Counted from the first letter of the stretch, positions 3,674 through 61,447 are shown. The stretch: 64,000 bases of DNA from Acidobacteriota bacterium (GCA_028876655.1 JAGWRA010000280.1:1556-65555); one strand, 5' to 3'. Notes: generated by a model from the letters alone, not told the origin. Numbers and translations: made by a program.

Positions 3674-4076
3674 TCATCTCCCTGCCTGGTACTGCCCGTC
3701 GCTGACGTGCTCGAGCCAGTCGACCACTCTTCCGTCCAGTCGCTCCTGGATGGCGATGTGGGTCATGGCCGTCGTGGGCGATGCGCCGTGCCAGTGCTTC
3801 TCGCCCGGCGCGAACCAGACGACGTCGCCCGGGCGAATCTCTTCGATCGCCCCACCCCACCGCTGCACCCGGCCGCAGCCGGCGGGTGACGATCAGCGTC
3901 TGGCCGAGCGGATGCGTGTGCCAGGCCGTGCGGGCGCCCGGCTCGAAGGTGACGTTCGCCCCGGCGACGCGCGCCGGATCCGGCGCCTGGAACAGCGGGT
4001 CCAACCGGACCGTCCCGGTGAACCAGTCGGCCGGCTCCTTCGCCGACGGCTGTGAGCCGACTCTCGTGATGTCCAT
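3674..4076 (-). pseudogene. cupin-domain protein interrupted by a 1-nt frameshift
   Basis: The N-terminal half ([26 protein letters not shown]...[14 protein letters not shown]) is in the frame of ORF 3414..4076. The C-terminal half ([34 protein letters not shown]...) continues in the frame of ORF 3674..3868. The two join if one G of GGG at 3884-3886 (+ strand) is removed. Confidence 0.7.
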
Positions 4077-4101
4077 CTCGTGTCCCTCTCTCAGCGGCCG
4101 C

Positions 4102-6086
<1,985 letters not shown>

Positions 6087-6223
6087 GCCGCGCACAGCAG
6101 ACGATGCGTGCTCTGCCGGCATTCTGGTGCTACGGTTATCCCCTGGGCTGACGCCCGGCGTGCCGGCGCGCGGAGGTCGCGTGCCGGAAGCCGCCGGTCG
6201 GGCCGGAGATGCATGGTGAACCG

Positions 6224-7288
6224 ATGAAGACGTTATGGATCCTGCTGGCGGCGGTCGGCCTGTCCGCCGGGCTGTCGGCTCAGAACAAGGCGCCCCTCAC
6301 ACTCGTGCAGACGTTCCCCCTGCCGGCGACCGTGAAGGGGCCGATCGGCCGGCTCGGCGTGGACGTCGCCGGCCATCGGCTCTTCCTCCCGGCTGAAGAT
6401 GCGCACGCGGTTCTGGTGCTCGATCTCCGCACGGGCGCGCTGCTGCACACCATCGGCGATCCCGGCGGGCCGCGCGCCGTTCTCTTCCGCGCCGACCTCG
6501 GCAGTCTCTACATCGTCGACGGGAGGACCGGCGAGGTGAAGGTCTACGATGCCGGCTCGTACCGCGAGGTGATGTCGACACGGCGGACCCTTGGGGCTGC
6601 GGTCCCTGTCATGCCGGATGCCCGTGACCTCGGCTACGACCCGCGAACGAAGCTGCTTTACGTCACGAGCGCCGGCGCCGAGTCCGATGCCAAGGGCAAG
6701 GCTGCCAGGGACAAGAAGAAGACGTCGCTCCTGAACATGGTCGATACCTCCACCGGCTACAAGGGCTCGGACCTGGAGATTGACGGTGACGCGCTGGGGG
6801 CGATGGCGCTCGAGACGAAGGGCCCGCTGCTCTACCTGAACAACCCCGCCAAACACGAGATTGACGTCATCGATCGCGTCAACATGGTCCTCAAGGCGAA
6901 ATGGCCGGTGACGATGGGCCAGGACAACCGGGCGATGGCGCTCGACGAGGCGTCACACCGGTTGTTCGTCGGCTGTGCCAGCGGAGCGGTCGTCGTCTTC
7001 GACACGAAGACCGGGACGGAGATCAAGGCGCTGCCGATTCCGGCGGGGATCGACGATCTGGCTTTCGATCCGCAGACCCGTCGGCTCTACGCGTGCTGCG
7101 GCGGCGACACGGGAACGATTGACGTGTATCAGGAGAAGGACGGCGATCAGTTCCAGTCGCTCGGCCGCGTGGCGTCCGGGCCGGACGCGGGATCCGCACT
7201 CCTCGTGCCCGAGCTGCACCGGTACTTCGTGTCAGTGCCGGCGCACGGGAACGAGCCGGGGAAGGTACTGGTGTATCAGGTGCCGTAG
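6224..7288 (+). CDS. secreted beta-propeller repeat protein (YncE/YVTN-like)
   Basis: Signal peptide MKTLWILLAAVGLSAGLSAQN. Repeated blade-like segments (LYIVDG, LLYVTSAG, LLYLNN, RLFVGC, RLYACC, VLVYQV). Confidence 0.7.
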   Translation: MKTLWILLAAVGLSAGLSAQNKAPLTLVQTFPLPATVKGPIGRLGVDVAGHRLFLPAEDAHAVLVLDLRTGALLHTIGDPGGPRAVLFRADLGSLYIVDGRTGEVKVYDAGSYREVMSTRRTLGAAVPVMPDARDLGYDPRTKLLYVTSAGAESDAKGKAARDKKKTSLLNMVDTSTGYKGSDLEIDGDALGAMALETKGPLLYLNNPAKHEIDVIDRVNMVLKAKWPVTMGQDNRAMALDEASHRLFVGCASGAVVVFDTKTGTEIKALPIPAGIDDLAFDPQTRRLYACCGGDTGTIDVYQEKDGDQFQSLGRVASGPDAGSALLVPELHRYFVSVPAHGNEPGKVLVYQVP

Positions 7289-7404
7289 GAAGGGAGAACC
7301 CGCCTTCGCGGCTGCACCGCTTCGGCGCGCAACCTTCTCAGGTGAGCGTGAGCGGGGGTTGGCTTGCCAACCGAAGCTCGCGCCGGTTACGCGCGAGCGA
7401 AGGT

Positions 7405-7427
7405 TGGCGGAGGGAGAGGGATTCGAA
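7405..7427. repeat. island-distal att direct repeat (copy of the tRNA-Ser 3' end)
   Basis: TGGCGGAGGGAGAGGGATTCGAA is identical to 32622-32644 in the same orientation. No tRNA body is adjacent. Confidence 0.85.
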
Positions 7428-8045
7428 GGCTGTTAACACACCTGTTTTCAATAATTTACAGAACTTTTAATAATCCAGACCGGCCGAAATCGCTCAAAAA
7501 TCGCGGGGCTGGGACGAAACTGGGACGGCAGAGAGACGGTGCGACAGAGCTCTACCGCATGGAGGTCGTCGTCTTGCGACCGTCGACAACTCCGCGACTC
7601 CCTCTCAAGGCGAGCGCTGGTGCGATTCGCGCCAACGCTCGGGTCCGCGCGATCGATAGCAAGCTGCAGACGAACTGTGGTGCTCGGCTGTTCGGTGATC
7701 TCAGCCAACCCGTCGGAGCCGGATGGACCGGCAACCTCTATGGCAGATTAAGTGAATCGGCCCACGTGCGGCCTGGACGCACATTGGGGGACACTTGGGA
7801 CAGCAACGGTCCATCTACGTCGGTGAGGCCGTTCGAGACCTTCACGAAATCTTCTTCGGAACCGTGTGCGCTGCGTGCGTTCTTGCTTATCTCGACCGCC
7901 GCTCTCTGAGGTTTCCAAAGGCCTTGGGTCGCTCTCTGGTCGCAACGGAGGTGTAGCCGACGGCAATCGAGTTGGTAGCACTATCCAAGGTCCGCTCAAC
8001 TAAGTTGGTCTTAGAGCGTTTCGAATGGTGTGCTAGACTCTGGAC

Positions 8046-8179
8046 GGACTCACCGGCAGATTTTGTGCCGCGTTTCGCGGCATTTGACGCCAACGCCACA
8101 CTCGCTGCTGCACATGTCGCAAGGCGATATGCGTGATATGTGCGCAGGCTGACTATCGCATAGGAGTGCCGGTGGGTCT
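8046..8179 (+). ncRNA. candidate retron msr/msd non-coding RNA
   Basis: 13-bp inverted repeat (8046-8058 GGACTCACCGGCA / 8167-8179 TGCCGGTGGGTCT; 11 WC + 2 GU pairs) as a1/a2. G at 8059 follows a1 directly. An msr-like hairpin lies at 8066-8082 and a longer hairpin at 8109-8144. The element ends 23 nt before the RT ATG. Prediction by eye only. Confidence 0.35.
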
Positions 8180-8202
8180 CTTCTCTATCCCCGCGTGCGC
8201 AG

Positions 8203-9990
8203 ATGTCCCGACTTGCCGCGCTCAAAGCCGCGAGCTCGCTGAACGCACTCGCCGATCTCCTAGACTTCAAACCCAAGGCTGTCTCATACATCCTTTATAA
8301 GATTCCGTCGAAGAGTAAGTACACGACCTTCGAGATTCCGAAGCGATCAGGCGGGCAGCGCACGATCAAGGCACCCACTGAGAAGCTGAGGAACCTTCAG
8401 CGTAAACTGGCCGATCTCCTTCAGGATTGCCAGTTGGAGATCGAGACGGCCCGACATCTCAACGATCGAACCGCGCACGGCTTCAAACGCGGGAAATCGA
8501 TCGTCACCAACGCCAGTCAGCATCGGGGCCGCCGTTGGGTTCTCAACCTTGACCTCCAGGATTTCTTTCCATCCATCAATTTCGGACGAGTCCGAGGATT
8601 TCTGATCAAGAACCGCGACTTTGCACTCAACGCGAAGGTCGCCACCGTGATCGCACAGATCGCCTGCCACGACAACACGTTGCCCCAGGGCAGCCCATGC
8701 TCGCCGGTGATCTCCAATCTGGTCGCTCACGTGCTCGATATGCGGCTTGTGATGCTGGCCGGCAAGTTCGGGTGCACGTACTCGCGCTACGCCGACGACC
8801 TGACGTTCTCCACGAGCAAGAGGGAGTTCCCGGCCGAGATCGCCAAACCCCTCGGAGCCGAGGCTCCGGAGACTCACCTCTGGGTTCCCGGGGAGGCCCT
8901 GCACGGCGTTCTCATCCGCAGCGGCTTTGCGATCAATGCAAAGAAGACGCGATTCATGTATCGACGCTCCCGCCAAGAGGTCACCGGTCTGACCGTGAAC
9001 AAAAAGATCGGCGTTCGATGGCGGTACCGCCACGATGTCCGGGCGATGGTTCACAAGCTGGTGACCAAAGGGCAGTTTGAGGTTCTCAGCACCGTGGTCA
9101 AAGATGGCGAGCCGACGCTGGAAAAACGGCCGGGCACGCGCCCGGAGTTGCACGGCATGCTCGGATTCATCGACAGCATTGACGTCTTCAACGCGAAGCT
9201 CGCTGCGGCCCTCAGAGGAGCAAAGCGCCCCTATCGAAGCGTCTCACCGAAGGCGCCAGAGCAAGAGTTCTCCTCAAGGGAGGCAGTCTATCGTCAATTC
9301 CTCATGTACACGACGTTCTATGCTCCGTTGAAGCCCGTGATTCTCTGCGAGGGCGACACCGATAACGTGTACCTGAGGCTCGCCATTCGCCGCCTTGCTG
9401 CTGACTTCCCTGAACTGGCGGAAATCACAAAACAGAAGATTGTCGTCCCGAAGGTGAGAATCTACAAGCACCCTAAGTCAAGTACCACACGCTTGCTCGA
9501 TCTCGGATCGGGTGGATACGCTCCGCTTGGCAACTTCATGTCAAGGTACAAGAAGGAGACTGCACATTTTGGCCCAGGGCTGACCGAGCCGGTGATCGTC
9601 GTCTACGACAACGACAGCGCCGGAGGCCAGCTGCGCAACAAAATAAAGGGGGAGTTCAAGGTCGCGTCGGACGGCACGGAGCCCTTCATCCATATTTTCA
9701 AGAACATCTACGCGGTGCCCATTCCGTTTGGACCAAATGCAGCGCCGACTGAGATTGAGGACTTGTTCGACGCAGCAACAAAGGCGACGAAGCTCAAGGG
9801 CAAGAGCTTTTGCTCCGAGAAGAACATCGACGAGGACACCCAATACAGCAAGAGCGCCTTCGCCAAGGAGGTCATTGCCGCGAACGCCGGCAAGGTCGAC
9901 TTCAACGGCTTCAGGCCGTTGCTCACCAATGTCGCGGCGGCAATCAGGGCGCACCAAAAAGCGGTCATCGAGCCGTCGCCGAAACCCTAG
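8203..9990 (+). CDS. retron-type reverse transcriptase fused to a C-terminal Toprim nuclease domain (Ec67/Retron-Eco2 family architecture)
   Basis: RT motifs IPKRSGGQRTIKAP, NLDLQDFFPSI, LPQGSPCSPVISNL, YSRYADDLTFS, VTGLTVN. The C-terminus has Toprim-like acidic motifs VILCEGDTDNVY and VVYDNDSAG. 595 aa. Confidence 0.85.
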   Translation: MSRLAALKAASSLNALADLLDFKPKAVSYILYKIPSKSKYTTFEIPKRSGGQRTIKAPTEKLRNLQRKLADLLQDCQLEIETARHLNDRTAHGFKRGKSIVTNASQHRGRRWVLNLDLQDFFPSINFGRVRGFLIKNRDFALNAKVATVIAQIACHDNTLPQGSPCSPVISNLVAHVLDMRLVMLAGKFGCTYSRYADDLTFSTSKREFPAEIAKPLGAEAPETHLWVPGEALHGVLIRSGFAINAKKTRFMYRRSRQEVTGLTVNKKIGVRWRYRHDVRAMVHKLVTKGQFEVLSTVVKDGEPTLEKRPGTRPELHGMLGFIDSIDVFNAKLAAALRGAKRPYRSVSPKAPEQEFSSREAVYRQFLMYTTFYAPLKPVILCEGDTDNVYLRLAIRRLAADFPELAEITKQKIVVPKVRIYKHPKSSTTRLLDLGSGGYAPLGNFMSRYKKETAHFGPGLTEPVIVVYDNDSAGGQLRNKIKGEFKVASDGTEPFIHIFKNIYAVPIPFGPNAAPTEIEDLFDAATKATKLKGKSFCSEKNIDEDTQYSKSAFAKEVIAANAGKVDFNGFRPLLTNVAAAIRAHQKAVIEPSPKP

Positions 9991-10223
9991 GGGGGCGAAG
10001 CGATTCCAAGTAATCCTCCCGTCCGGCTACACGGGCGGCCGATCTCCCGTCGGCGAAATTACTGCCGATCGCAGGTATCAGCTGAGGAATGGAGTTCGTC
10101 TTCCTTGCTGCCGTCGATTCAAGGGGCAAGTCCTCGGGCAGCACCGAGAGCGCGCGACATGGGACGGCAGACCACGCCGGGCATCAACTAGCATCGGCGA
10201 CGATTCGCAGTCCTCGCGTCACG

Positions 10224-11588
10224 TTAGTCGCCCATCTTGAAGATCTCGAGCAGGTCCCTCAGGGCGATCTCCGCCCGGACACACATTCGGTCGAAGGCTT
10301 CCTCTATCTCCGGATAGTCCTCTCGGTGCACAGCAGTGTTCATCGCGTCGATAGTCTCGATAGCAGAATCCAGCTCCGAAACCATCATGTCGCGGTAGTC
10401 CTTGTTCTTCAGCGACCGACAGAGCCACCGCACCTGTGCGGCGCGCGTCGGCTCCCCCTTGCTCGAGAGGTACTTCTTGTCCGGGCCGCCCGCGAGCACG
10501 CGATCCCTCGGCGCGATAGCATCCAAGGTCTCGATGAGCACATACCGCAGCGAGGAGGAGGCCTGCCGCACCCAGTCACTCTCGCGGCGCCTGACCGTCG
10601 CCAGACCGGCTCTCCACGACACCAGGAGCGCCGGGCGGATGCGCGGCAGCGTCGTCTCGATGATGCTGGTGGTCTCCTCTCGCACCTCGCTCCAGATCTC
10701 CACGACCGGCTCATCGCCGGTGTGAGTCGTAATAGCGCGCACAACGCGCGCGTGCGAGTACACCGCGAGCGCGGGCACCTTGGCCATGAATGGCGCATCG
10801 ATAACGGGCTCAGGCGCCAGGGCTGTGGCCTCAGCGTACCGGGCGTACGCCGTGTTCAGGCGAAACGATTCGAGCTGCAACGCCTCCGGATTCACGACGC
10901 CGATCCGATCTCCGAGCGACTCCCAACGCACCGTCGCCGCGACAAGCTCGGCGGCGCGTGAGACCGCCTCGATATGGCGGAAATTCTCGGCGAAGCGGGT
11001 GAGATCGATGGGCCGGAACATCTCCACAAGGCGACCGGCGCTCAAGCTCAAATCGATCGGTTTCAATTGCTCGGCGACATGCCGCACGACATCTGTAGCC
11101 GCCTGCGTGGTCGCGCAACATTCGGCGGCGAGCTTTTCCACGCCGGTTACGAACTCTGCAGAGAATATAGAATGCGCGAGCACGTTCCGTGCGAGCGCGA
11201 GGGACTCGCCCATCTCGCGCATCATCTTGTCCACGCGGTCCCGTTGCACCATGAACTCACGAACGGCCGACGAATCGAGCGCACGCTGCACGGCGTCCCG
11301 CTCCTCGAGGATCCTCTGAATGGCGGGACTGACCAGCGCTTCGATCTTCCGCGCTTCCATGGCCTCCCGCGCCATCGACGATCGCTCCAGAAGCACTCGC
11401 ACGGCCTCTTCTCCTTCACGGAATGCGAGGAGCGAGGCAGGGTCGATGATGTCGCGCAGCTTTTGCTGCTGTTCGCGGATCATCCGCTCGGTTTCAGGCT
11501 CGATCAGATGTCGCACCTCCTTGAGGTGCTGCTCCATCTCGCGTCTTGCGCGGAGGATGCGCTGCTTCTCCTCATCGGAGACGGTCAT
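10224..11588 (-). CDS. hypothetical protein: coiled-coil N-terminal region plus a conserved-looking helical C-terminal domain
   Basis: Start moved to ATG 11588 (MTVSDEEKQRIL), which is preceded by AAGGGG. The charged helical N-terminal half is rich in E/R/Q. The C-terminal ~120 aa (VRQASSSLRYVLIETLDAIAPRD...PTRAAQVRWL...DAMNTAVHRED...ALRDLL) recalls predicted nuclease domains from conflict systems; unverified. Confidence 0.6.
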   Translation of the reverse strand: MTVSDEEKQRILRARREMEQHLKEVRHLIEPETERMIREQQQKLRDIIDPASLLAFREGEEAVRVLLERSSMAREAMEARKIEALVSPAIQRILEERDAVQRALDSSAVREFMVQRDRVDKMMREMGESLALARNVLAHSIFSAEFVTGVEKLAAECCATTQAATDVVRHVAEQLKPIDLSLSAGRLVEMFRPIDLTRFAENFRHIEAVSRAAELVAATVRWESLGDRIGVVNPEALQLESFRLNTAYARYAEATALAPEPVIDAPFMAKVPALAVYSHARVVRAITTHTGDEPVVEIWSEVREETTSIIETTLPRIRPALLVSWRAGLATVRRRESDWVRQASSSLRYVLIETLDAIAPRDRVLAGGPDKKYLSSKGEPTRAAQVRWLCRSLKNKDYRDMMVSELDSAIETIDAMNTAVHREDYPEIEEAFDRMCVRAEIALRDLLEIFKMGD

Positions 11589-11629
11589 AACGAAGTACCC
11601 CTTGCCACCTAGCGCTCCCGTCTTGCCGA

Positions 11630-11890
11630 TCAGTCTACGAATACAACACGCCACGCGATCCCCGTCGACGAAAGGGCCCGCTCCCCACCCGGAAGTGGGC
11701 TCCAAGATTCGCGGGCGGCGGCGTTTCCTGCCGTTTGAGGGTCGCCTTCCGGAACGTCTGCTTCAGCCAGCGGCGGATACGCCGCGTCCCGAACGAGCCC
11801 TGCACGCAGATGGGGCAGGTTCACGTTGATTCGCCGCGGTTGGCACTCGAAAGCGGTCAGATAGAACCTCGGCACGAAGTGGTGCTTGTT
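11630..11890 (-). pseudogene. possible DUF4238-family gene remnant
   Basis: The minus-strand frame reads NKHHFVPRFYLTAFE directly after a TAA stop. HH(Y/F)VP(Q/R)FYL is the N-terminal signature I associate with DUF4238. There is no ATG, and similarity decays after ~35 codons. Confidence 0.3.
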
Positions 11891-12374
11891 TTAGGCATCT
11901 CCCCCGTAAGCTTCCCCGTCAAGCGGACAGTTCGAAAGGAGACTGCGCCGCCGATGAAGGCCAAGCATTTCTGTGAAGTTCGACACGAGAGGATCCCGTG
12001 CGGCGGCGGCGTCATACGCCTCGCCTCGCTGGAAAGGTCTGGAATATGTGGCCGCAATTATAGGCAGCGCAAAAGGATCGCGCAATTCTCAACTATGGCC
12101 ACCCGTGGGAGCGGCCGGTCCCTATGCTGCTGGCCGAGACTCTCACACAGACCGAGGGCGGCGCTCCAGGACGGGGGCGAGAGTCCTGAAGGCACGAGGT
12201 CCCTGAGGATTCACGGCAGGTTGAGAGCATTGTTCGCGCGAGAAGGGCCTGAAGACGGCGAGGAGGCGGCGGGCAAGGAGCGGACACAGGGTATAATTAA
12301 ACTGCTACAATCAACGCATAAAAGCGCTTGATGATGTGTAGTTGTACCCCCTATTGCCAGATCAAGGAGTTCAC

Positions 12375-13199
12375 GTGCCCGCCCGCGACAAAGCTGCAAT
12401 CGCCGCCCTCGCCAAGGCCTCAAGGACGGGGCTCATCACCGTCGAGGCTGCCGCCGGGGTCTTGGGGATTTCACCACCCGCGGCTTCGGCCCGCCTGGCC
12501 CGACTGGTCCGTTCAGGCTGGGCGGCCCGAGTCAGGCGGGGACTCTATCTGATCCTCCCGCTTGAAGCCCAACCGGGCCAGAAGGTGACGAGTGAGGATC
12601 CCTGGGTCCTCGCGCGCGAACTCTTCTCGCCCTGCTACGTCGGCGGCTGGAGCGCCGCCGAATACTGGGGGCTCACTGAACAGCTGTTCCGGACAACGCT
12701 CGTCGTCACCGCGGCGGCCGTCCGCCGCGGAAAGGCCTCCTTCCTGGGAAACGAGTTCCGCCTCTACCTCGTGGACCCAAACCGCTTGGCCGAGGGCGTT
12801 GTTGACGTCTGGCGCGGCAACGAGCGCGTGCCCGTTTCCAGCCGGGAGCGCACGCTCGTCGACTGCCTCGACGCGCCGGAGCTCTGCGGCGGCGTCCGCC
12901 ACCTCGCGCAACTACTCCGTGAGTACGCCGACGGCGGCAAGAAAAACATACCCTGCCTGCTCTCCGTTGCGGAGAAGTGCGCCTCCGGGGCCGGCTGGAA
13001 GCGCCTGGGTTTCCTCTCCGAACTACTCTGGCCGAAAGAGGCTGCCGTTCAGCCCGTTGCCCTGAAGCACATCTCCGCCGGCAACGCTCGCCTCGATCCT
13101 GCGGTCCACCAGCGAGGGCGGCTTCGCAAGCGTTGGCGGCTTTGGTTGAACGTCGACCTGCATGAATTCACTCCAGGCGAGGGCCAGACCACCACATGA
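12375..13199 (+). CDS. abiEi: type IV toxin-antitoxin system AbiEi-family antitoxin
   Basis: wHTH N-terminus (TGLITVEAAAGVLGISPPAASARLARLVRSGWAARVRRGLYLILP). GTG 12375 is preceded by AAGGAG (12364-12369). The stop overlaps the downstream ATG (ATGA at 13196-13199). Confidence 0.8.
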   Translation: MPARDKAAIAALAKASRTGLITVEAAAGVLGISPPAASARLARLVRSGWAARVRRGLYLILPLEAQPGQKVTSEDPWVLARELFSPCYVGGWSAAEYWGLTEQLFRTTLVVTAAAVRRGKASFLGNEFRLYLVDPNRLAEGVVDVWRGNERVPVSSRERTLVDCLDAPELCGGVRHLAQLLREYADGGKKNIPCLLSVAEKCASGAGWKRLGFLSELLWPKEAAVQPVALKHISAGNARLDPAVHQRGRLRKRWRLWLNVDLHEFTPGEGQTTT

Positions 13200-14614
13200 T
13201 TCGCAAGCAGGACATCCTCGACCGGGCGGCGGAGTGGCAGCTCAGGCCGGAAGTCGTCGAGAAGGACTACGTCCTCGGTTGGCTCCTCGCGGGTCTTGCC
13301 AGCCTGCCCCTTCGCGAGCATTGGATATTCAAGGGTGGGACGTCGATCAAGAAGTGCTACTTCGAGACGTACCGCTTTTCGGAAGACCTGGATTTTTCTC
13401 TCCTCCCGCAGGCGGAATACGGCGAGGAGGGCCTTCGGGCGAATCTGCACACACTCGGCGCGCGAACGAGCGAGCTCAGCGGCCTGGAATTTCCGCCGGA
13501 CGCCATCGTGCTCCGCGAACGCCGGAACCGTCAGGGCCAGCCGACCTTCGAGGGGCGCGTCGGCTACCGCGGTCCACTGGTCTATCCAGGTACGCCGAAG
13601 GTGCTCTTCGACCTCACGCAACACGAAGCAGTGGTGGAACCGCCAGCGGACCGCCCGATACTGCACCCCTATCCCGACGACTTGCCTGAAGGCGCGGCAG
13701 TCCGTGCGTACTCGTTCAACGAGTTGCTGGCCGAGAAGACGCGTGCTCTCTTCGAGCGCCGCCGCCCGCGCGACCTCTACGATGTCGTTCACCTCCTGGA
13801 AAACGCCCCCGGTTATCTCGACCTGGCGCGGGTCCGGGAACTCTTCAGGCGCAAGTGCGAGAACAAGGGATTGGTTCCGCCGACCGCAGCGCTCCTGGCG
13901 GCCGCGGTAGATGGCGACGCGGAGATGCGGTCCGAGTGGAGCAACATGCTCGCGCACCAGCTTCCCGCTCTGCCGGATCTCGACGCAATGCTGGGAAAGC
14001 TACCGGGGCTTATCGGCTGGCTGGACCTTGCAACGCCGATCGCCTTGCCGGAGTCGCGCCTCGCGGCGGCGCCGATTCCGGCGCGTGAGGCGCCGATCGT
14101 CGCACCCGGCATCAGATTTTGGGGTTCGGGGTCGCCGCTCGAAACGATCAGGTTCGCTGGCTCCAACCGACTTCTCCTGGAGTTCGACTATCACGGGCGG
14201 CACCGCGTCACCGAGCCATATTCCGTCCGCCAGGCAGCCACGACGGGGAACGTGTTGCTCTACGCCTGGGAAATGGCGGCGGCGCATGTCAAGGCCTTCA
14301 ACCTTGCGGACATGCAGAACGTCCGGGCCAACGGCGAGGTGTTCTCTCCTCGGTACCGCGTCGAGTTCTCAGAATCCGGACCAGTCCAGATCAATCCCAA
14401 CGCGACCAGAGCTCGGCCGGCATCCACCCTACCCCGGCTCGGCACGAGCCGACGCACACCAGCCCGATTCGGCCCTCGGTACGTTTTTGAATGCCCGTAT
14501 TGTCAGAAGAGATTCACGCACAGCACGAATGCCTCGTCACTTCGCAAACACAAGCGCGCGGATGGCTGGGGCGATTGCCCTGGCCGCCAGGGGTACCTCG
14601 TCGAAGTCCGATAG
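13196..14614 (+). CDS. abiEii: AbiEii/AbiGii-family nucleotidyltransferase toxin with a ~190-aa C-terminal extension (WYL-like + zinc-finger-like)
   Basis: NTase motifs FKGGTSIKKCY and RFSEDLDFS with the DUF1814-like core in residues 1-280. Residues ~316-391 are WYL-like (RVTEPYSV...GNVLLYAW...VKAFNLADMQNV). Residues 431-461 read FECPYCQKRFTHSTNASSLRKH...C. Confidence 0.85.
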   Translation: MIRKQDILDRAAEWQLRPEVVEKDYVLGWLLAGLASLPLREHWIFKGGTSIKKCYFETYRFSEDLDFSLLPQAEYGEEGLRANLHTLGARTSELSGLEFPPDAIVLRERRNRQGQPTFEGRVGYRGPLVYPGTPKVLFDLTQHEAVVEPPADRPILHPYPDDLPEGAAVRAYSFNELLAEKTRALFERRRPRDLYDVVHLLENAPGYLDLARVRELFRRKCENKGLVPPTAALLAAAVDGDAEMRSEWSNMLAHQLPALPDLDAMLGKLPGLIGWLDLATPIALPESRLAAAPIPAREAPIVAPGIRFWGSGSPLETIRFAGSNRLLLEFDYHGRHRVTEPYSVRQAATTGNVLLYAWEMAAAHVKAFNLADMQNVRANGEVFSPRYRVEFSESGPVQINPNATRARPASTLPRLGTSRRTPARFGPRYVFECPYCQKRFTHSTNASSLRKHKRADGWGDCPGRQGYLVEVR

Positions 14615-15859: not shown

Positions 15860-16837
15860 TCAGGCAGTCCCTATGAGGCCCTCCAGCTGCGGGTACACGG
15901 GTGGCAGCATCAGTCGCCCGATTCGCCCGCCCCCCTCTGCGACAGCCCGCGCCAGCGTCGGCGACATGGCCGCTTCCAGCACTTGGTCCCCGCGGTCCAG
16001 CCAGTCGCGATACAGCACCCGGAAGTGAGCGGCACCAAACCCTCTGACCGCGCCGTCGAACCGCTCCTGCGCCTCGGGCCGGCGGTGCTGGCGCGCCGCG
16101 AAATACCAGCGGAGCTCCTGCGCGATCGTCGGGTGCAGCGGCTCTTGCACCTGCTCGCGGAAGGCCGCCTCGTACGAACCGAGCGCTGCGGCTCGGCACC
16201 GCGGCACGAGCAGCCGGATTTCCCAGCTCGGCAGAGCGCGCAGTAGCGCCGCATGTCGCTGCAAGAACTCCCGGAACTTCAGGGAGGTCGGTTCGACCAC
16301 AAGGAAGAGGAAGAGCACGGTTTCATGACCGTCGCCGACACCGATCGGCAGGACGTCCGGGAAGAACTGCCATACCGCTCCGCCCCGGGCGGTGCCTTTC
16401 ACAGCGGGTTGATCGGCTTCGGCGACTCCGTAGCGGGCGCCGAAGTACTGGACCTTCTCGTGCGCGGATCCGAGCCACGTCCGATCCGGCGCGGCGAGCA
16501 CACCGTCGAGCAGCATGAGGCGCTCAATGGCTCGGGGGAGCGACGGCCGGTGCCGGTGGCGATGCTCCGGCTCGTTCATCGCGCGATAGAGAGCCTTTGC
16601 GTGGATGTGGAAGAGGTGCGTACGACGCGTGCCGCATGGATGCCGCGTGGCGTAACCTCGGGTCACCAAGGTGCGGAAGAACCGCTGGCTGTTCTTGCCG
16701 TGTGCGATGCCGGCGAAGGTGCAGTACTGGCGTTCGAGGCAGACGCCGGCGTGCCGCATGACGGTGAGCACGAACCTGGCTTGTCGGGCCGTGAACCCAT
16801 ACGCAGCGACCGCGGCAACGGCCTGATCGAAGAGCAT
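15860..16837 (-). CDS. hypothetical protein, winged-helix-like N-terminus (island maintenance/replication-relaxation-like?)
   Basis: MLFDQAVAAVAAYGFTARQARFVLTVMRHAGVCLERQYCTFAGI...FFRTLVTRGYATRH. Start is uncertain (16837, 16909 or 16966). No motif that I can name securely. Confidence 0.5.
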   Translation of the reverse strand: MLFDQAVAAVAAYGFTARQARFVLTVMRHAGVCLERQYCTFAGIAHGKNSQRFFRTLVTRGYATRHPCGTRRTHLFHIHAKALYRAMNEPEHRHRHRPSLPRAIERLMLLDGVLAAPDRTWLGSAHEKVQYFGARYGVAEADQPAVKGTARGGAVWQFFPDVLPIGVGDGHETVLFLFLVVEPTSLKFREFLQRHAALLRALPSWEIRLLVPRCRAAALGSYEAAFREQVQEPLHPTIAQELRWYFAARQHRRPEAQERFDGAVRGFGAAHFRVLYRDWLDRGDQVLEAAMSPTLARAVAEGGGRIGRLMLPPVYPQLEGLIGTA

Positions 16838-17138
16838 CGGAGATCCAGTCAGTCGGCAGCGGGGCACGCTCAACCTGGACCGGAAGGTGGAACACGCCGC
16901 GCGCGTCATCTGAAGGAGCGGCCCGTCCGTGGCCGCGCGTCCGGATGACGGCCGTCCTCTCGGCACCGAGCCCCTGATCTGTAGAACGCTGTTTGCGACC
17001 GAAACCTCACAAAGAATTTTCAGAATTTCTCAAGCTCAGCTGGAGACCGCGGGCGCCTCCCGCGTGGTCACTTCTATGCCAACCCGCAAGCCGAACACAT
17101 CGTGTCTCGAAGGCTGTGACCAGGAGGGCGATTCCGAT

Positions 17139-17454: not shown

Positions 17455-18342
17455 CTACCCATGCAACTTCCTCGGTGGTGAGGCCTGGCGGCTCGACAGC
17501 ACGGATTGCAGGAAGATGCACGCCACCGGCAACATCAGGAGCAGCGGCAACAGGTGCAGTGGCCAAGGCCTGTGATGGTCCGCGAAGGCGCGAATGACCG
17601 GGCCTTGGGCCGTCGATGACCACCAGCCGTAGATCAGCGCCGATTCCACCCCCGGTGCTGTCAACCACGTGGCGGCTCCGACCGCGCCTGCGCAAAGCAA
17701 GGCGTGCGCGGGTGAGAGCGGATTCCCTTTCGGGGCTCTCATGGCCCCGAGACACATGGGCGGCAGCACCAAGGTGGCGCGGACGAGAGCGGGAAAGACC
17801 AGGCGGTAGAACGGTGACGCGAAGACAGCCCAGTTGCCGGAATTGGCCAGCCCGGAAGTGGTGCTATCGTAGGTGGCAACGAACAGGACGACGGTAAAAG
17901 CGCCGGCGGTGGCCCAGACCGCCCGGCGTGAGAGCGAGGCGAGGACGAAGCCGATCGTCCATGCCCAGCCGATCAGCGCCAGGCATCTGACGATGACGGT
18001 GCCGGAGTACCGGAGCAGATCCAGGCGAGCTCCCGGACTCTGCAGGTAGCCCCACGTCCAGTTGTTGACGTAGAACCAGGCGTAGATAGCGCTGTTGTTG
18101 GCCCACGCCCTGGAGGCGAAGCTGAGTGCCATCCCAAGCGGGAGCGCGAGCCCTAGCAACGCCAGCCAGGGCCTCCAGCCCTTCCAGGGCGCGAACTGTC
18201 GCCTCGTAGCCAGTCCCACGATTTCGCGGATGACCTGCGTCTGACTCGCACCCAGTTCAGCGAGATCGCCGAGCACCGCATCGCGTTCGTCGGCATCAAG
18301 AAGCCGCGCAAGGTGAGCGACTAGCCAGGAAGCGGGAGACAT
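17455..18342 (-). CDS. polytopic membrane protein translationally coupled to a PadR regulator
   Basis: The start ATG overlaps the PadR stop (TGATG at 18340-18344). Several hydrophobic spans (WLALLGLALPLGMALSF, TVIVRCLALIGWAWTIGFVLA, etc.). Confidence 0.6.
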   Translation of the reverse strand: MSPASWLVAHLARLLDADERDAVLGDLAELGASQTQVIREIVGLATRRQFAPWKGWRPWLALLGLALPLGMALSFASRAWANNSAIYAWFYVNNWTWGYLQSPGARLDLLRYSGTVIVRCLALIGWAWTIGFVLASLSRRAVWATAGAFTVVLFVATYDSTTSGLANSGNWAVFASPFYRLVFPALVRATLVLPPMCLGAMRAPKGNPLSPAHALLCAGAVGAATWLTAPGVESALIYGWWSSTAQGPVIRAFADHHRPWPLHLLPLLLMLPVACIFLQSVLSSRQASPPRKLHG

Positions 18343-18671
18343 CAGGCGCGGCTCCCGTGGCGTGCCGCCTTCCAAGGCGTCCCCTGGGTCACGCGGAGGA
18401 CGGCACGGTAAAACTGCTCGGCTTCCTGCCTTCCGCTTGTCGTGACGCGCACCATGCGCTTGGGCCGCCCGCCCCGCTGCGACGTCGGATCACCCATCCA
18501 GGTTTCCACCAACCCTTTGGCTTCGAGTCGGTCGAGCGTGGTGTAGAGCGCACCCACCGAACAGCGGGCTCCGGTCGCCTCTTCAACGGCTATCCGGATG
18601 GCTGCGCCGTAGGCCTCGTTGCCGAGCCTGGCTGTCGCCGAGAGCAGGAGATATTCGAACTCACCCAGCAT
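18342..18671 (-). CDS. PadR-family transcriptional regulator
   Basis: MLGEFEYLLLSATARLGNEAYGAAI...GALYTTLDRLEAKGLVETW...GGRPKRMVRVTTSGRQ is the PadR wHTH pattern. Confidence 0.85.
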   Translation of the reverse strand: MLGEFEYLLLSATARLGNEAYGAAIRIAVEEATGARCSVGALYTTLDRLEAKGLVETWMGDPTSQRGGRPKRMVRVTTSGRQEAEQFYRAVLRVTQGTPWKAARHGSRA

Positions 18672-22061: not shown

Positions 22062-24116
22062 TCAAAACAGCGGCGATAGAACGGTATGCCGGATGTGTAG
22101 GGCGTCGGCACCAGCGAACAAGAGGTAAGCAGCGGTCACCGCCCAGAAGACCATCGCGGCCCTACGAAATGCCCTTGAGTGTCCCTTGATAGCGACAGTG
22201 ACGAGTGCGAGCAGGACAAACAGTTCGAACGTTGTCCGCTCTGCGTTGCCGATGTAGACCCATACTGCTTGGTAGTTGAGTGAAACCGCGACCAACCCGT
22301 AGACGACGGCAGCGAAGGTTAATGCGCCTGGGGCGATGATCGCCGACCACATCGCGAGGAGGCTGCCGGCTATGAGGACAAGAGGATACCACGTGGCCGC
22401 TCTGGCAAAACTGGCGACGCCCGAGTAGTAACTGTGATGATAGACCGTTGTCCAGAGGACACGAATGCCAGCGAGTGGAGTGGCCAGATCGTTCGAGTCG
22501 AAGAAGAACGCATGGACTCCCCAAGTCGGCCAGAGCACCCAACCCACATACAGACGCCAGAGCGCGACTGGAAGGAGCGCGATAAGTGCCAGCCGCAACC
22601 CCTCGCGGCGGCCTTCCGTGAACAGCGTCGCGATGGCAAGTGCGAGCACGAGCACCGTGCCGGTTTCGCGTACGAGGAGCGAAGCTGCCAGCCAGAAGCC
22701 CGCCCATGCATACCGACGTTGTCGCCAGCACAAATAGCCACCCAGGAGAAAGGCTGCCGCAATCGGTTCAGGTAGGCTCACTTGGATTGACTGCCAGAAG
22801 CCGGGAACGATCGCAATGAGCAGCCCCCAGAGGGGGCTGGCATCGTTGAACTGGCTGAACGATGCGAGCACGAAGCCGGACAGTCCCAGGCCCGCCAACA
22901 CGAGCGCCATCATCACCGACGGGTACAGGCGCCAGCGATCAGCGGAGACCACCTTCGTCAGCAGCGTAAAGCCGATGCGGCCGTACCGATAGGGCGCCGC
23001 GTCGATGAACCGGTCGTAGACTGACGGCTGATTGCTGAATTGACGCAGAAATGGGTCGTACGCCTCCAGATACATGAACTGTGCGTCGTAGCCGCCCTTC
23101 GTGAACCTCAAGGTGTGGCGAATGTCGTTGCGTCCGTTGACTGTGGGGTCCGCATCATACCGAGATGAGCTCAGCTGAAGGAAGCCGCTGAAGTTGCCGG
23201 CATATCGTGTGTAAAGATCGTGATACACGAGGCGACCGTACGGCATTAGCATCAGCAGACTGACCAATGCGGGCATCGCCCAGGCTGGCCTCCGCTGCTT
23301 GTTCCACCACTGCACGACGGCCGCGCTCACTAGCCATAGACGTGAGAACACCAGGACCAGTACGCCCTCCGTATATCCCAGCCCCGAGAGAAGAACCTTG
23401 TACGGAGAGACCAGCGGCGAAAGGAATACGAGTAGATAGAAGATCGCCACCGGGATAACGGCGGTCCGATAAACTAGGCGAAGTCGGCTCGAGGTGATTT
23501 CGGCAGCTGGGGCCAGGAAGATCAGCAGAAGTGCAATCCCGATACAGGCGGTCAGGGCTCTTCCTGGTGGTGTGTACTGACGGGAGGCCGCAGGAAGGAT
23601 GACCAGATCGTAGGCCCGGGTCGCCCCGTGATGGGTAGCCAGCTCGAAGTAGTCCACGGACCAGGCACTGCTTGGACCATCGATCGCGATCTCGTGACGT
23701 CCTCCGCCCCACGGTCCGTCAACGGCGCAGTCAATCCGCCGAGGTCCGCCCGGGGACACGGTCCTGCGGCAGATCAAACGGCCGTCGATCTTGATCGTGA
23801 ATCCCCGCGGGCCCGTCGCCTGACTCTGGATACGCGCGATGAGCGCAAATGGCGGCTCTAGTACGCTTAGATGCGTGGCCGGGCTGGTTTGAATCTGGAC
23901 GTGTGTTCCGGTGGCGACGACCGGTCGGGTGACAATCTTGAAACGTGCGCCGTGGAATTGGACGTACACCCGCGTTGCGAAGAGCGCGCAGAGTCCGGCC
24001 GAAATCAGCACTGCCGCCAGAATGTGGCGCCAATAGGGTGCGCCGCGACCTCTAGAAGAACCTGACGCGCCGAGCGATGTACGGATCGCGACGTCAGAGG
24101 TTCTGGTGTCAGTCAT
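22062..24116 (-). CDS. large polytopic membrane protein (possible cell-surface glycopolymer formation / glycosyltransferase-C-like)
   Basis: 684 aa: one N-terminal TM segment, a ~170-aa soluble segment, then >10 hydrophobic spans. The start overlaps the stop of the upstream methyltransferase (ATGA at 24113-24116). Confidence 0.7.
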   Translation of the reverse strand: MTDTRTSDVAIRTSLGASGSSRGRGAPYWRHILAAVLISAGLCALFATRVYVQFHGARFKIVTRPVVATGTHVQIQTSPATHLSVLEPPFALIARIQSQATGPRGFTIKIDGRLICRRTVSPGGPRRIDCAVDGPWGGGRHEIAIDGPSSAWSVDYFELATHHGATRAYDLVILPAASRQYTPPGRALTACIGIALLLIFLAPAAEITSSRLRLVYRTAVIPVAIFYLLVFLSPLVSPYKVLLSGLGYTEGVLVLVFSRLWLVSAAVVQWWNKQRRPAWAMPALVSLLMLMPYGRLVYHDLYTRYAGNFSGFLQLSSSRYDADPTVNGRNDIRHTLRFTKGGYDAQFMYLEAYDPFLRQFSNQPSVYDRFIDAAPYRYGRIGFTLLTKVVSADRWRLYPSVMMALVLAGLGLSGFVLASFSQFNDASPLWGLLIAIVPGFWQSIQVSLPEPIAAAFLLGGYLCWRQRRYAWAGFWLAASLLVRETGTVLVLALAIATLFTEGRREGLRLALIALLPVALWRLYVGWVLWPTWGVHAFFFDSNDLATPLAGIRVLWTTVYHHSYYSGVASFARAATWYPLVLIAGSLLAMWSAIIAPGALTFAAVVYGLVAVSLNYQAVWVYIGNAERTTFELFVLLALVTVAIKGHSRAFRRAAMVFWAVTAAYLLFAGADALHIRHTVLSPLF

Positions 24117-27391: not shown

Positions 27392-28198
27392 CTACTCGCC
27401 GCCTGTTCCGTGCGACCGCGCCAACCGCACATCGCCGATGTCGTGCCACGGTTCTCTTTTGCTCGCTCGCCACACGGCGCAGTGATTCGAGAGCCGGATC
27501 GACTCGGTGAACGCGCAAACATCCGTGATCTCTGGTGGCACAGTTGGTCGGCTAGGCGGCGGAGCGAAATGCCAGAACGATCGCCACGGCAAAAAATAGC
27601 CCGGATCGATGTACACGAGCAAGTGCCGCTCTGCCGTGCCGGCGCCGCCGAGTTTGGCCCGGTTGTCAGACTTCATGCACTGTCGCCCTGCAGCTGCGAT
27701 CAGTAGGTTGGGTCCGCTGAGGCCACCTTCGCTCGGAACGGGCGCCATGCGAATGAAGCCGGGCTCTTTCCAGTGCGTCACGAAGCCGCTGTAGACGTGC
27801 AGGTCTTCGTAGACCACACGGACCGCCGAATGTGAATAGGCGTCGGTCGGACCAAAGAACTCGAAGATGCGGTCTCGCTCCAACGCCGCGAGTGCCTTGG
27901 CGATGCGACGACGGATGTCCTTTATGTTCGCGCTGATATCCGGATGAATCAGCCAATCCCGCTTGCACTCTCCGATCCTGATAGCGCGCCCGCCCTTCTT
28001 GAGATCTTCAATCGCCGCACTGATATCGCGTTCAGCCCTGTCAATGGCGGCGGTCACTTCGGCGGCGACGAGCACGCCCGTGGGCAGGTGAAGGTCAAAG
28101 TCCGCCACGCTGCGGCTCTGGTCTGAACGATAGACCATCCGCGCACCGGGAACCGCCGCTTCAACGACCATCTGTGCGAGGGTTTCCGAGTGGTTCAT
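27392..28198 (-). CDS. hypothetical protein (possible PD-(D/E)xK-like N-terminus)
   Basis: 268-aa ORF with no overlapping better frame. The N-terminus SVADFDLHLPTGVLVAAEVTAAIDR loosely resembles a D...E-x-K nuclease core, but K is replaced by T. No secure family. Confidence 0.5.
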   Translation of the reverse strand: MNHSETLAQMVVEAAVPGARMVYRSDQSRSVADFDLHLPTGVLVAAEVTAAIDRAERDISAAIEDLKKGGRAIRIGECKRDWLIHPDISANIKDIRRRIAKALAALERDRIFEFFGPTDAYSHSAVRVVYEDLHVYSGFVTHWKEPGFIRMAPVPSEGGLSGPNLLIAAAGRQCMKSDNRAKLGGAGTAERHLLVYIDPGYFLPWRSFWHFAPPPSRPTVPPEITDVCAFTESIRLSNHCAVWRASKREPWHDIGDVRLARSHGTGGE

Positions 28199-29281: not shown

Positions 29282-30793
29282 TTAGTTGTCTGGGCGCTGA
29301 CTGCCGTTCATCGGCCTGTCGGGCTCCTGTTCCATCGCGGTCACGGCCTGATCGATTAGAGCAACGGCTTCACGCTCACGTTGCAGATACGAGTAGGGCG
29401 AGAGTCGGATCCGTGGCGTTGCTGAACCGCGAGTCCACTCCACCGCGGCACGTTCCGCGCCGCTTCCCCGTCGCCGATTGAGAGGAAGACCGCTGCTCAG
29501 TCGCATGGAAAATAGGTCAAAATAGCGCCTTGCCGCAATCCCTACGAATGGGTTGAACTGCACCTTCTCGCACGCCTGAGGATTGTCAACCGCTATGCTG
29601 TCGTCGTGAAGTTCAAGGGCCCGACTCTTCGGATACGGTTCGACGTAAACCACTCTTGTGATTCCTGCTGCGACAATGTGCTTGGCGCAGTTGTGGCAGG
29701 GAAACGTCGTTGTGAACAGCGTCCCGTCTTTGACGCGGGTTCCCGAACGAGCACACGAAAGCAGGGCTTCCATTTCCGCATGAACTGAGCGCCCGAACTC
29801 GGTGAGGTCAGCGATTCTACTGTCAACAAGACACGCGCGTGCGTCCTCCGCTGTTCCTTCGGCCAAGCAGCCTGAAATTCTGGTGACGACATCCTCGATC
29901 ATTTCCGAGACGACTCTGTCGTTGGCATCAAATCCCCGAACGTGATCCCGCTGGTCGTTAGGGCCCGGCCAGTACAGGCCGCCACGGAATTTGGGGACGT
30001 CGTTCGCACCGGTCGCGATGACCTCGCCGTCTGCGGAAACCACAACTGCACCGACCTGTCGCGCCAGCTGAGCAGACCTGAGCGAGGCTGCATAGGCCAG
30101 GAACATCGAGTGCTCATCTTGGGTCGGCGTATAGAAGGGATTGCCGAATACGAGGTCAATGAATCGTGAGAGCTCGTCGTCTTTGCCTTCAGTTACAAAC
30201 ACGTCCGCCAAAGTGAAGGTGTCTCGGGTGTGCTGGCCGAGGGCGTCGTCAGCTTCGTCCTGGTCGCGCTCGAGGAGCTTCTTCGCTTGCTCCTCGCTAA
30301 CGCCCTTTCGTTGCATCAGGTAAGCAAGACGCTTGCTCGCTGGAGAGTAGACGCCTATGAGGAAGAAGCCGGTGCCGTAGACCCTGCGCAGAGTCTCAAC
30401 TTCTTCTGGGTGTTTGAGGCTGCGGAGCAGGTGGACGACACGCTCTTGTGGCGCGACGTCTTCACCACGTCGCTCGCTGATGGCCGATATCGCGTGGAGC
30501 GCGAGGATGTCGCCGCGCCCGGCTTGGTTTCTGAGTTTGTTGCCGAGACTCATCCTTGAATTGACGCGTTCGAACTCAGTGGCGCTGTTGATGACGACGC
30601 CGAGTTGTTCTGTGTGGAGCCGCTCCGCCAAACCGCTCAACTTGATGACGTTTGTGTCGTAGCCAAACTGTTTCAGGAAATCTGTGACCGTGGCTTGAAC
30701 CCGGTCGAAATCCGTGCCGGTCGGCGCGACCAACGCAAAGATGAGCTCGCCCTGAGGCAGCGTGACGACCTCGGCGAGCGTTCTCCCGGACAT
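29282..30793 (-). CDS. anti-phage dCTP/deoxycytidylate deaminase, AvcD-like (N-terminal NTPase/kinase-like + C-terminal CDA domain)
   Basis: C-terminal zinc-deaminase motifs HAEMEAL ... FPCHNCAKHIVAAGITRVVYVEPYPKS. The N-terminal ~200 aa (ELIFALVAPTGTDFDRV...) occupies the place of the P-loop-like domain. 503 aa from ATG 30793. Confidence 0.8.
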   Translation of the reverse strand: MSGRTLAEVVTLPQGELIFALVAPTGTDFDRVQATVTDFLKQFGYDTNVIKLSGLAERLHTEQLGVVINSATEFERVNSRMSLGNKLRNQAGRGDILALHAISAISERRGEDVAPQERVVHLLRSLKHPEEVETLRRVYGTGFFLIGVYSPASKRLAYLMQRKGVSEEQAKKLLERDQDEADDALGQHTRDTFTLADVFVTEGKDDELSRFIDLVFGNPFYTPTQDEHSMFLAYAASLRSAQLARQVGAVVVSADGEVIATGANDVPKFRGGLYWPGPNDQRDHVRGFDANDRVVSEMIEDVVTRISGCLAEGTAEDARACLVDSRIADLTEFGRSVHAEMEALLSCARSGTRVKDGTLFTTTFPCHNCAKHIVAAGITRVVYVEPYPKSRALELHDDSIAVDNPQACEKVQFNPFVGIAARRYFDLFSMRLSSGLPLNRRRGSGAERAAVEWTRGSATPRIRLSPYSYLQREREAVALIDQAVTAMEQEPDRPMNGSQRPDN

Positions 30794-30823
30794 GGCAGAA
30801 ATTGTAGGGATCCTCTTCGTTGG

Positions 30824-30872
30824 TTGACACACATTTCTGCGTCAGATATCATCAGATATCATTCGATATCTA
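30824..30872 (+). promoter_or_regulatory. sigma70-like promoter overlapped by three tandem 10-bp repeats with GATATC cores (candidate RHH operator)
   Basis: TTGACA (30824-30829), a 17-nt spacer, then TATCAT (30847-30852). Repeats are CAGATATCAT (30843-30852), CAGATATCAT (30853-30862) and TCGATATCTA (30863-30872). An AGGAGA RBS follows. Confidence 0.5.
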
Positions 30873-32536: not shown

Positions 32537-32621
32537 GCTCCATCGTCTCACCAGAGGGACGAAATTGGAACGATTGACTATTGATGAGCAGAAATAGTCA
32601 ATTAAATCAGGGCTGAATTAG

Positions 32622-32711
<90 letters not shown>

Positions 32712-34105: not shown

Positions 34106-34173
34106 GAAATTCGCCTGCCCGTATTCTACATGGTGCCCGTGCCAAATCCGGTATCCTGCGATAGGATGGCCCC

Positions 34174-58599: not shown

Positions 58600-58608
58600 G
58601 CGAAGAGG

Positions 58609-60482: not shown

Positions 60483-60488
60483 CGGCTG

Positions 60489-61148: not shown

Positions 61149-61178
61149 GTGCTGCCAGGCGACCTGCCCTCCTAGGTT

Positions 61179-61194
61179 TGTTCCACGTGGAACA
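61179..61194. promoter_or_regulatory. parS site (perfect 16-bp palindrome)
   Basis: TGTTCCACGTGGAACA, versus the canonical parS TGTTNCACGTGAAACA. Confidence 0.8.
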
Positions 61195-61316
61195 CTGTGC
61201 ATACCCGAAGCCTCGCCGTCTCTACCTCCGTGCGACCTCAGCCAGGTGATAGCCGCGATGCGTCGGCAAGATGCTAAGTCTTAATTTTCAAAGGCTTACA
61301 ATCAGAGCAGCTGCTG

Positions 61317-61332
61317 TGTTCCACGTGGAACG
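61317..61332. promoter_or_regulatory. parS site (15/16 palindrome)
   Basis: TGTTCCACGTGGAACG, 116 nt upstream of parA. Confidence 0.75.
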
Positions 61333-61447
61333 ACTAGCCTAGCCTGAGGCCCAAGAAAGGCCGCGTGAATAGGGACGGTCTCGGTTACAATGTGCCAGAC
61401 AAGTCAAATAGACCCAGGCAGACATTGTTTCTGTCGAAAGACCTAAA

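Follow-up and report, generated by a model that had tools for sequence, protein, structure and literature searches.

The 64,000-nucleotide (nt) stretch of Acidobacteriota bacterium DNA analyzed here in full (GCA_028876655.1, JAGWRA010000280.1:1556-65555; hereafter the window) carries an uninterrupted open reading frame (ORF) with an ATG start at 8203-9990 on the plus strand. Its 595-amino-acid (aa) product is a fusion of a reverse transcriptase (RT; residues ~1-340) and a Toprim domain (residues ~375-590), as recognized through profile, structure, and alignment matches. Upstream on the same strand lies a 134-nt msr-msd non-coding RNA (ncRNA) gene at 8046-8179, supported by a covariance model, covariation, and RNA folding; this part of the retron was absent from a preliminary description of the locus. 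The fusion gene and the ncRNA very probably make up a complete retron of type I-C (I-C1-like) and of the Ec67/Retron-Eco2 family, carried as cargo of a 25.2-kb island integrated at a tRNA-Ser gene. Nothing in the sequence speaks against membership of the Ec67 family.

The translation of 8203-9990 contains every motif of the RT and Toprim series that the preliminary description had quoted for a 595-aa ORF, i.e., IPKRSGGQRTIKAP, NLDLQDFFPSI, LPQGSPCSPVISNL, YSRYADDLTFS, VTGLTVN, VILCEGDTDNVY, and VVYDNDSAG. The Pfam domain RVT_1 matches residues 45-265 (E = 1.6e-24), and a weak match to OLD-like_TOPRIM at residues 379-400 falls below threshold (14.2 vs. 23.2 bits). PADLOC RT-Toprim_I-C models span residues 1-589 (E = 7.9e-214). 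All top PADLOC matches of the protein are retron RT models, and the two best, PDLC02966 and PDLC02963, are also the best for Ec67 (709 and 705 bits for the window protein; 720 and 718 bits for Ec67). With the NCBIfam model NF038237 (retron_Ec67_fus, "retron Ec67 family RNA-directed DNA polymerase/endonuclease"), the protein obtains 672.6 bits, the curated cutoff being 450, and residues 5-582 align with profile positions 2-570 of 572. When the protein was compared with PDB sequences using phmmer, the top matches were the Retron Ec67 chains 9I2F, 9I2G, 9S1F, and 9LM3 (E = 2.4e-132, residues 2-589). The passing of the NF038237 cutoff at full length and the end-to-end alignment with Ec67 both uphold the preliminary assignment to an Ec67/Eco2-type RT-Toprim fusion.

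Models of other RT groups matched far less well. The group II intron RT-maturase model TIGR04416 reaches 60.1 bits where 300 are required, its match being limited to the RT core, and no group II intron was found by Rfam within 6500-11000. The NCBIfam models for defense-associated reverse transcriptases (DRTs) are likewise below cutoff (Drt2, 33.8 vs. 390 bits; Drt3a, 26.5 vs. 200 bits). Retron_TIR (NF042941) gives 310 bits against a cutoff of 600, confined to residues 13-327, and the best structure of a diversity-generating retroelement (DGR) RT, 8ub7, is a non-significant fold match (Foldseek, E = 0.69). These comparisons give no sign that the RT groups with group II intron, DGR, or abortive infection (Abi)/DRT enzymes. 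The profile, PDB, alignment, and fold matches instead place the RT with retrons and identify the C-terminal domain as an Eco2-type Toprim.

The residues on which Ec67 activity depends are retained in the window protein. Pairwise alignment with the 586-aa E. coli Ec67 protein gives 43.7% identity over 570 columns. The YADD motif at residues 196-199 aligns with Ec67 Y199-D202 (199-202), while E383, G384, D387, D469, D471, and E519 align with Ec67 E374, G375, D378, D460, D462, and E515, respectively. Mutation has shown that Ec67 E374, D378, D460, and D462 are required for activity (PMC12916289; PMC12405507), as is E515 (PMC12405507). The YADD motif and all six Toprim residues are invariant among 34 relatives, as is K550, which aligns with Ec67 K546. 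Toprim motif IV (EGxxD) reads EGDTD at residues 383-387 and motif V (DxD) reads DND at residues 469-471; this pair is the signature of I-C1 and I-C3, whereas I-C2 carries DxE (PMC7736814). The catalytic lysine of the Eco2 Toprim has been given as K562 (PMC12405507), but residue 562 is Asp in the Ec67 sequence that we extracted (locus L081 from E. coli, 4170-5930). Since the numbers disagree in this way, we make no claim for K562, and the published number may have been carried over from a class 2 OLD nuclease.

We also built an AlphaFold2 model of the 595-aa protein from an alignment of 34 sequences. The mean pLDDT score (predicted local distance difference test) was 72.8, with values near 90 in the C-terminal domain (residues ~360-590) and low values at residues 336-354. 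The five best PDB matches of the model in Foldseek are all Eco2 structures, including 9lm3, 9i2f, and 9s1f (E = 1e-38 to 1e-35), with template modeling (TM) scores of 0.58-0.60 over ~600 columns; other retron RTs score far lower. The model gives, with high confidence, the C-terminal Toprim fold that the preliminary description had proposed from motifs, and this domain can be superposed on the Eco2 structure.

The msr-msd gene was delimited by comparison of related loci. Among 80 loci encoding relatives, fetched from GTDB species representatives, nearly all contain a 10-15-nt inverted repeat at approximately -150 and -20 relative to the start codon, spanning 125-145 nt, with CA at the end of the 5' arm (a2) and then GAT(T). 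In the window, a repeat search picked out 12-nt inverted arms at 8047-8058 and 8167-8178, then a G. The arms as annotated are a2 at 8046-8058 (GGACTCACCGGCA) and a1 at 8167-8179 (TGCCGGTGGGTCT), both on the plus strand, with a1 ending 23 nt before the RT start codon. Between them lies the msr hairpin at 8067-8083 (plus strand; TGCCGCG-TTT-CGCGGCA), which has a 7-bp stem. The 146-nt region folds into a structure closed by the a1/a2 stem (RNA fold z = -4.15). When 6500-11000 was scanned with Rfam (E ≤ 10), no retron msr family was returned, only sub-threshold chance matches to sucA (E = 1.9), Ms_AS-4, and raiA-hairpin; as Rfam holds no matching family, it could not settle the question of the ncRNA.

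Covariation supports the proposed RNA structure. We aligned 66 regions of relatives, including the window sequence, and evaluated covariation on the 65 distinct sequences. The alignment begins with the a2 arm, after which come an A-G-A without variation, a linker rich in U, and the 7-bp hairpin; a conserved segment (UGAAA..AAUG) and a variable region then lead to the invariant motif GC.UA.GAGU and the a1 arm. RNAalifold predicts both helices, with compensatory changes in 17 of 20 pairs. When the structure is specified explicitly, 96.2% of cells are paired and 18 of the 20 pairs show double changes. The 13-bp a1/a2 helix contributes compensatory double changes in 12 pairs (94.4% of cells paired), although its statistics are inflated because the arms were picked partly for complementarity. 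In the msr hairpin, which played no part in the choice of sequences, pairing reaches 99.6% with compensatory changes in six of seven pairs. No observed measure of covariation was reached by any of 500 shuffles, and sliding the partner by one to three columns lowered pairing to 30-38%.

A covariance model (R1) was built from this 66-row alignment, with E. coli Ec67 left out. The window sequence supplied one of the training rows, and the model matches the 64 kb only once, at 8046-8179 (97.3 bits, E = 6e-26). The model also finds the held-out and experimentally defined Ec67 msr-msd at L081 4002-4132 (65.2 bits, E = 1.3e-16), as well as 11 of 11 held-out relatives, each directly upstream of its own RT gene. 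The Ec67 ncRNA sequence was verified, being 100% identical in 14 E. coli genomes, where it adjoins or overlaps the annotated Ec67 RT gene. As an observation on that annotation, the RefSeq coding sequence for the Ec67 RT (L081 3990-5930, E. coli NZ_CP045712) starts at 3990, encodes 646 aa, and runs across the whole msr-msd (4001-4132); the protein used experimentally has 586 aa and starts at 4170 of L081. The RefSeq start thus appears over-extended across the ncRNA.

The alignment to Ec67 also allows a concrete multicopy single-stranded DNA (msDNA) to be predicted. The A-G-A that follows a2 is conserved in 66 of 66 aligned relatives, and the covariance-model alignment pairs G8059 (plus strand) with Ec67 G15. 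The latter is the branching nucleotide of Ec67, in which reverse transcription terminates at G52:dC67 with U51 flipped (PMC12916289). By homology, G8059 is predicted to be the branching guanosine, with its 2'-OH as the primer of msDNA synthesis. The predicted msd template occupies 8095-8165 (plus strand), with its start at A8165, equivalent to Ec67 A118, and its stop at G8095, equivalent to Ec67 G52. The corresponding msDNA would be ~71 nt long, 5'-TCCTATGCGATAGTCAGCCTGCGCACATATCACGCATATCGCCTTGCGACATGTGCAGCAGCGAGTGTGGC-3', reading 5'-TCCTATGCGATAG...GTGTGGC-3' from end to end and beginning with TCCT as in Ec67. Applied to Ec67 itself (template A118 to G52), the same mapping yields its known 67-nt msDNA and the published numbering of G15, U51, and G52. 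In the 66-region alignment, GAGT at the start of the template shows no variation. Given that the msd is not alignable with that of Ec67, the length and 3' end of the window msDNA, and any three-way junction within it, are predictions.

A candidate promoter precedes the ncRNA. An extended -10 element, TGCTAGACT (TGnTAnnnT), lies at 8031-8039 on the plus strand, 6 nt upstream of a2, and close relatives carry TGnTAnnnT 5-10 nt before a2. Of 67 loci, 48, including E. coli Ec67, have this motif no more than 25 nt upstream of a2, compared to 2 of 67 in a control window 100 nt further upstream. As a conserved extended -10 element, 8031-8039 would start transcription at approximately the 5' end of the ncRNA. 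It is visible only through comparison across loci: a generic sigma-70 scan requiring both hexamers gave no match upstream of the ncRNA and no more matches overall than shuffled sequences.

No further gene appears to belong to this unit. Clustering of every ORF of 80 aa or more lying up to 3 kb away on each side at ~79 loci gave no flanking cluster common to more than two of them; in addition, homologues of the neighbors of the window retron are absent from the retron loci of the 80 relatives. Because flanking ORFs are not conserved, the conserved unit consists of the promoter, the ncRNA, and the RT-Toprim gene, i.e., a single-protein retron, which is the layout of type I-C (PMC12916289). The preliminary claim that the retron lacks an accessory gene is supported by these results, and the next credible gene is convergent as described (10224-11705, minus strand). 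The 493-aa product of this convergent gene matches the Pfam family pP_pnuc_1 ("predicted pPIWI-associating nuclease") at its C-terminus (E = 3e-10), with no pPIWI gene among the scanned ORFs in the vicinity. We considered this nuclease as a hidden accessory protein and rejected it, since it has a homologue in none of the 80 relatives' loci and no PADLOC match; it may be an orphan defense nuclease.

The retron lies near one end of the tRNA-Ser island. Positions 7405-7427 and 32622-32644 are the two copies of a 23-nt direct repeat, TGGCGGAGGGAGAGGGATTCGAA, whose 22-nt core had no match in 100 shuffles. The second copy forms the 3' end of an intact tRNA-Ser gene (32622-32711, minus strand), so that the first, which lies outside the retron and for which no strand is assigned, is a copy of its last 23 nt. 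A tyrosine integrase gene (31472-32551, minus strand) adjoins the tRNA gene. Because the integrase and intact tRNA sit at the other end, the retron occupies the integrase-distal end. The attachment (att) end away from the integrase and intact tRNA is conventionally named attR. The island boundary proposed in the preliminary description is thus corroborated by the repeat and tRNA, whereas its placement of the retron inside attL should read attR, the retron end being left in window coordinates only. The retron lies 619 nt inside the 7405-7427 repeat, and the intervening stretch contains no credible gene; an ORF at 7364-7909 was rejected as it spans the att repeat, has no Pfam match, and shows flat guanine-plus-cytosine (GC) content at the three codon positions. 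GC content is ~0.69-0.72 outside the island and 0.575-0.585 over the retron.

The island carries other genes associated with defense. A type IV toxin-antitoxin/abortive infection pair lies 2.3 kb downstream of the retron on the plus strand, comprising the antitoxin AbiEi (12342-13199) and the nucleotidyltransferase toxin AbiEii (13196-14614), whose ORFs overlap by 4 nt. Close to the integrase, a dCTP deaminase defense gene (29282-30832, minus strand) encodes a 516-aa protein with a cytidine/dCMP deaminase domain (PADLOC "dCTPase", E = 5e-164). The remaining genes include three methyltransferases, a pair encoding PadR and a MacB-like permease, and several ORFs with no family match; no phage structural genes were seen among the scanned proteins. 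Four minus-strand ORFs of 268-684 aa (15860-16966, 17455-18375, 22062-24116, and 27392-28198) show coding-like GC content at third codon positions but no Pfam or PADLOC match, and are possible uncharacterized cargo of a defense island.

Three further observations concern the surroundings of the island. The tRNA-Ser(TGA) gene (32622-32711, minus strand) lies ~100 nt from a seryl-tRNA synthetase gene (32816-34225, minus strand). Just outside the retron-proximal end of the island, a GC-rich segment at 7319-7410 (plus strand) abuts the att repeat and contains nested and alternative inverted repeats with 18-nt arms at 7346-7363, 7366-7383, and 7391-7408; it has a sub-threshold match to the Rfam sucA motif (20.5 bits vs. 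40, E = 1.9) and is probably a terminator or repeat element following the gene at 6209-7288. Finally, GC skew is strongly positive (0.14-0.22) over ~3 kb at 58001-61000, much larger than elsewhere in the window, and flips to -0.09 at 61001-62000.

A working model can be proposed for the window retron from the mechanism of Eco2 (PMC12916289; PMC12405507), to which it is linked through sequence anatomy and homology. The extended -10 element at 8031-8039 would drive a single transcript comprising the ncRNA and the RT gene. Pairing of the a2 and a1 arms would present G8059, from whose 2'-OH the RT would prime, copying leftwards from A8165 to approximately G8095 to produce a branched RNA-DNA hybrid with a ~71-nt msDNA. 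By analogy with Eco2, in which the oligomer is a trimer, the msDNA would hold RT-Toprim subunits together and cage the Toprim active site. Degradation of the msDNA by a phage DNA nuclease would then uncage the Toprim RNase, and the freed enzyme would cut tRNAs and other RNAs, stop translation, and abort the infection. For Eco2, DenB degrades the msDNA directly and A1 is implicated by escaper mutations, and the Toprim domain cuts tRNA acceptor stems as well as other RNAs (PMC12916289; PMC12405507).

Several caveats attach to the assignment and to its extension to the Eco2 mechanism. Two bear on the evidence for the ncRNA: no Rfam family detects 8046-8179, and the window sequence helped to train the model that recovers it there. 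The selection that inflates the a1/a2 helix statistics did not extend to the msr hairpin and the invariant flanking motifs. Others bear on likeness to Eco2. The msd region cannot be aligned to that of Ec67, and the position of Ec67 S513, a ligand of metal B (PMC12405507), is E517 in the window protein; as this position varies across the family, we rejected the substitution as a meaningful active-site change. Furthermore, the trigger in an Acidobacteriota host must differ from DenB and A1, because these are proteins of T-even and T5-like coliphages.

An alternative is that the window retron belongs to another I-C subtype, either I-C3 or an unnamed soil clade, which might depart from Eco2 in its msDNA architecture, its oligomeric state, or its RNA target, so that the Eco2 mechanism would transfer only in outline. 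The identity to Ec67 is only 44%, the predicted msDNA differs from that of Ec67 in both msd sequence and length (71 vs. 67 nt), and the region aligned with the loop that makes trimer contacts in Eco2 (Ec67 325-347) is gapped in the alignment and has low pLDDT at residues 336-354. Moreover, the current classification of type I-C is imperfect (PMC12916289), and the EGxxD/DxD motifs cannot tell I-C1 from I-C3. We nevertheless consider a separate subtype unlikely: the window protein and Ec67 share their best PADLOC models with near-equal scores, the ncRNA model derived from relatives detects the Ec67 ncRNA, and all active-site residues are kept.

A further possibility concerns function rather than classification, namely that the Ec67-family retron serves mainly as an addiction or stabilization module of the tRNA-Ser island, with a caged RNase as toxin and the msDNA as antitoxin, and not as a phage sensor. 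The retron's place at the extreme end of a mobile island, next to the toxin-antitoxin-like defense pair AbiEi/AbiEii, fits such a role, and the unfused Eco2 Toprim is toxic while the msDNA-bound full-length protein is not (PMC12405507). However, Eco2 provides broad phage defense in E. coli (PMC12916289), and the island looks like a defense island in that it also carries the dCTP deaminase defense gene; we regard a mainly addictive role as improbable, though addiction and defense do not exclude one another. Least credible, and in our estimation highly improbable, is a decaying, non-functional copy, as might be imagined for a foreign gene of lower GC content at an island edge with 619 nt devoid of a credible gene between it and the att repeat. 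Against decay, the ORF is uninterrupted, of typical family length, and complete in its catalytic residues, and the locus has intact versions of the promoter motif, the a1/a2 stem, the branching G, the msr hairpin, and the template-start motif; the 97.3 bits that its ncRNA scores with the covariance model rank near the top of the sequences searched.

The exact 595-aa protein is already present in NCBI nr under an Ec67-family name, in a record labeled Acidobacteriota bacterium that agrees with the Acidobacteriota-like genome of the preliminary description, together with 6544 homologues at E ≤ 1e-20, many of them 60-84% identical. Judged by record titles, Acidobacteriota lineages account for ~37 of the 80 best genomic loci, and the others include Nitrospirota, Latescibacterota, Binatia, Proteobacteria, Bacteroidota, and Patescibacteria. 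Type I-C makes up ~11% of retrons (PMC12916289). The preliminary description implied that an Ec67-type retron outside Enterobacteria was surprising; this does not hold, as Acidobacteriota and other soil phyla contain the family in abundance and the host is accordingly unremarkable. The window retron is an ordinary, apparently intact member of a family with a published architecture, structure, and mechanism.

The gains from this analysis are correspondingly modest. The ncRNA of a large soil clade is delimited and a concrete msDNA predicted, a working covariance model is available for type I-C msr-msd genes that Rfam release 15 does not detect, and I-C retrons emerge as common cargo of Acidobacteriota defense islands, here with AbiE and dCTP deaminase. 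More tentatively, the 60-84%-identical relatives may form a soil clade centered on Acidobacteriota, Nitrospirota, and Latescibacterota, with Ec67 as a distant offshoot, that possesses a longer msDNA (~71 nt) of unrelated sequence and a trigger other than DenB or A1. Although we would not favor this idea at present, such a clade would, if true, provide a second, phylogenetically distant model of the way in which caging and triggering are tuned by the sequence and length of the msDNA.

Among known systems, other single-protein fusions of RT clade 8, i.e., types XII (RT-TIR) and XI (RT-protease), have RT domains closely related to that of the window protein. PADLOC matches to these types score 347 and 332 bits over residues 6-350, and neither they nor the NCBIfam Retron_TIR match (310 bits over residues 13-327) extend past the RT, beyond which the window protein has a Toprim domain rather than a TIR or protease domain. 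The catalytic core of the Toprim domain, with its glutamate and DxD motif, is shared with the OLD-family Toprim nucleases of retron I-B Eco8, Gabija (GajA), and PARIS (AriB), to which Eco2 is structurally similar (PMC12405507). In contrast to these nucleases, the window protein has no ATPase domain and its Toprim is fused to the RT, and the I-C Toprims form a lineage of their own (PMC7736814).

The closest known system is Retron-Eco2 (Ec67) of type I-C1 (PDB 9I2F, 9I2G, 9S1F, 9LM3; PMC12916289; PMC12405507). The two differ in host, the window gene residing in an Acidobacteriota genome with a GC content of 58%, and in carrier, which is a tRNA-Ser integrative defense island here and a P2-like prophage in E. 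coli. They also differ in msd sequence, which is unrelated, in msDNA length (predicted ~71 vs. 67 nt), in the residue at the S513 position (E517), and in the region of the trimer-contact loop. However, the proteins have the same domain order and similar lengths (595 vs. 586 aa), are 43.7% identical from end to end, and both keep the YADD motif and the Toprim E, G, D, and DxD residues. Both loci lack an accessory gene and are carried by mobile elements. In each, the ncRNA lies directly upstream of the RT gene, and the layout is shared: an extended -10 element, a 13-nt a2 arm ending in GGCA, the branching G and then ATTT, an msr hairpin of 7 bp, AGGAG ahead of a1, and an a1 arm 20-40 nt before the ATG.

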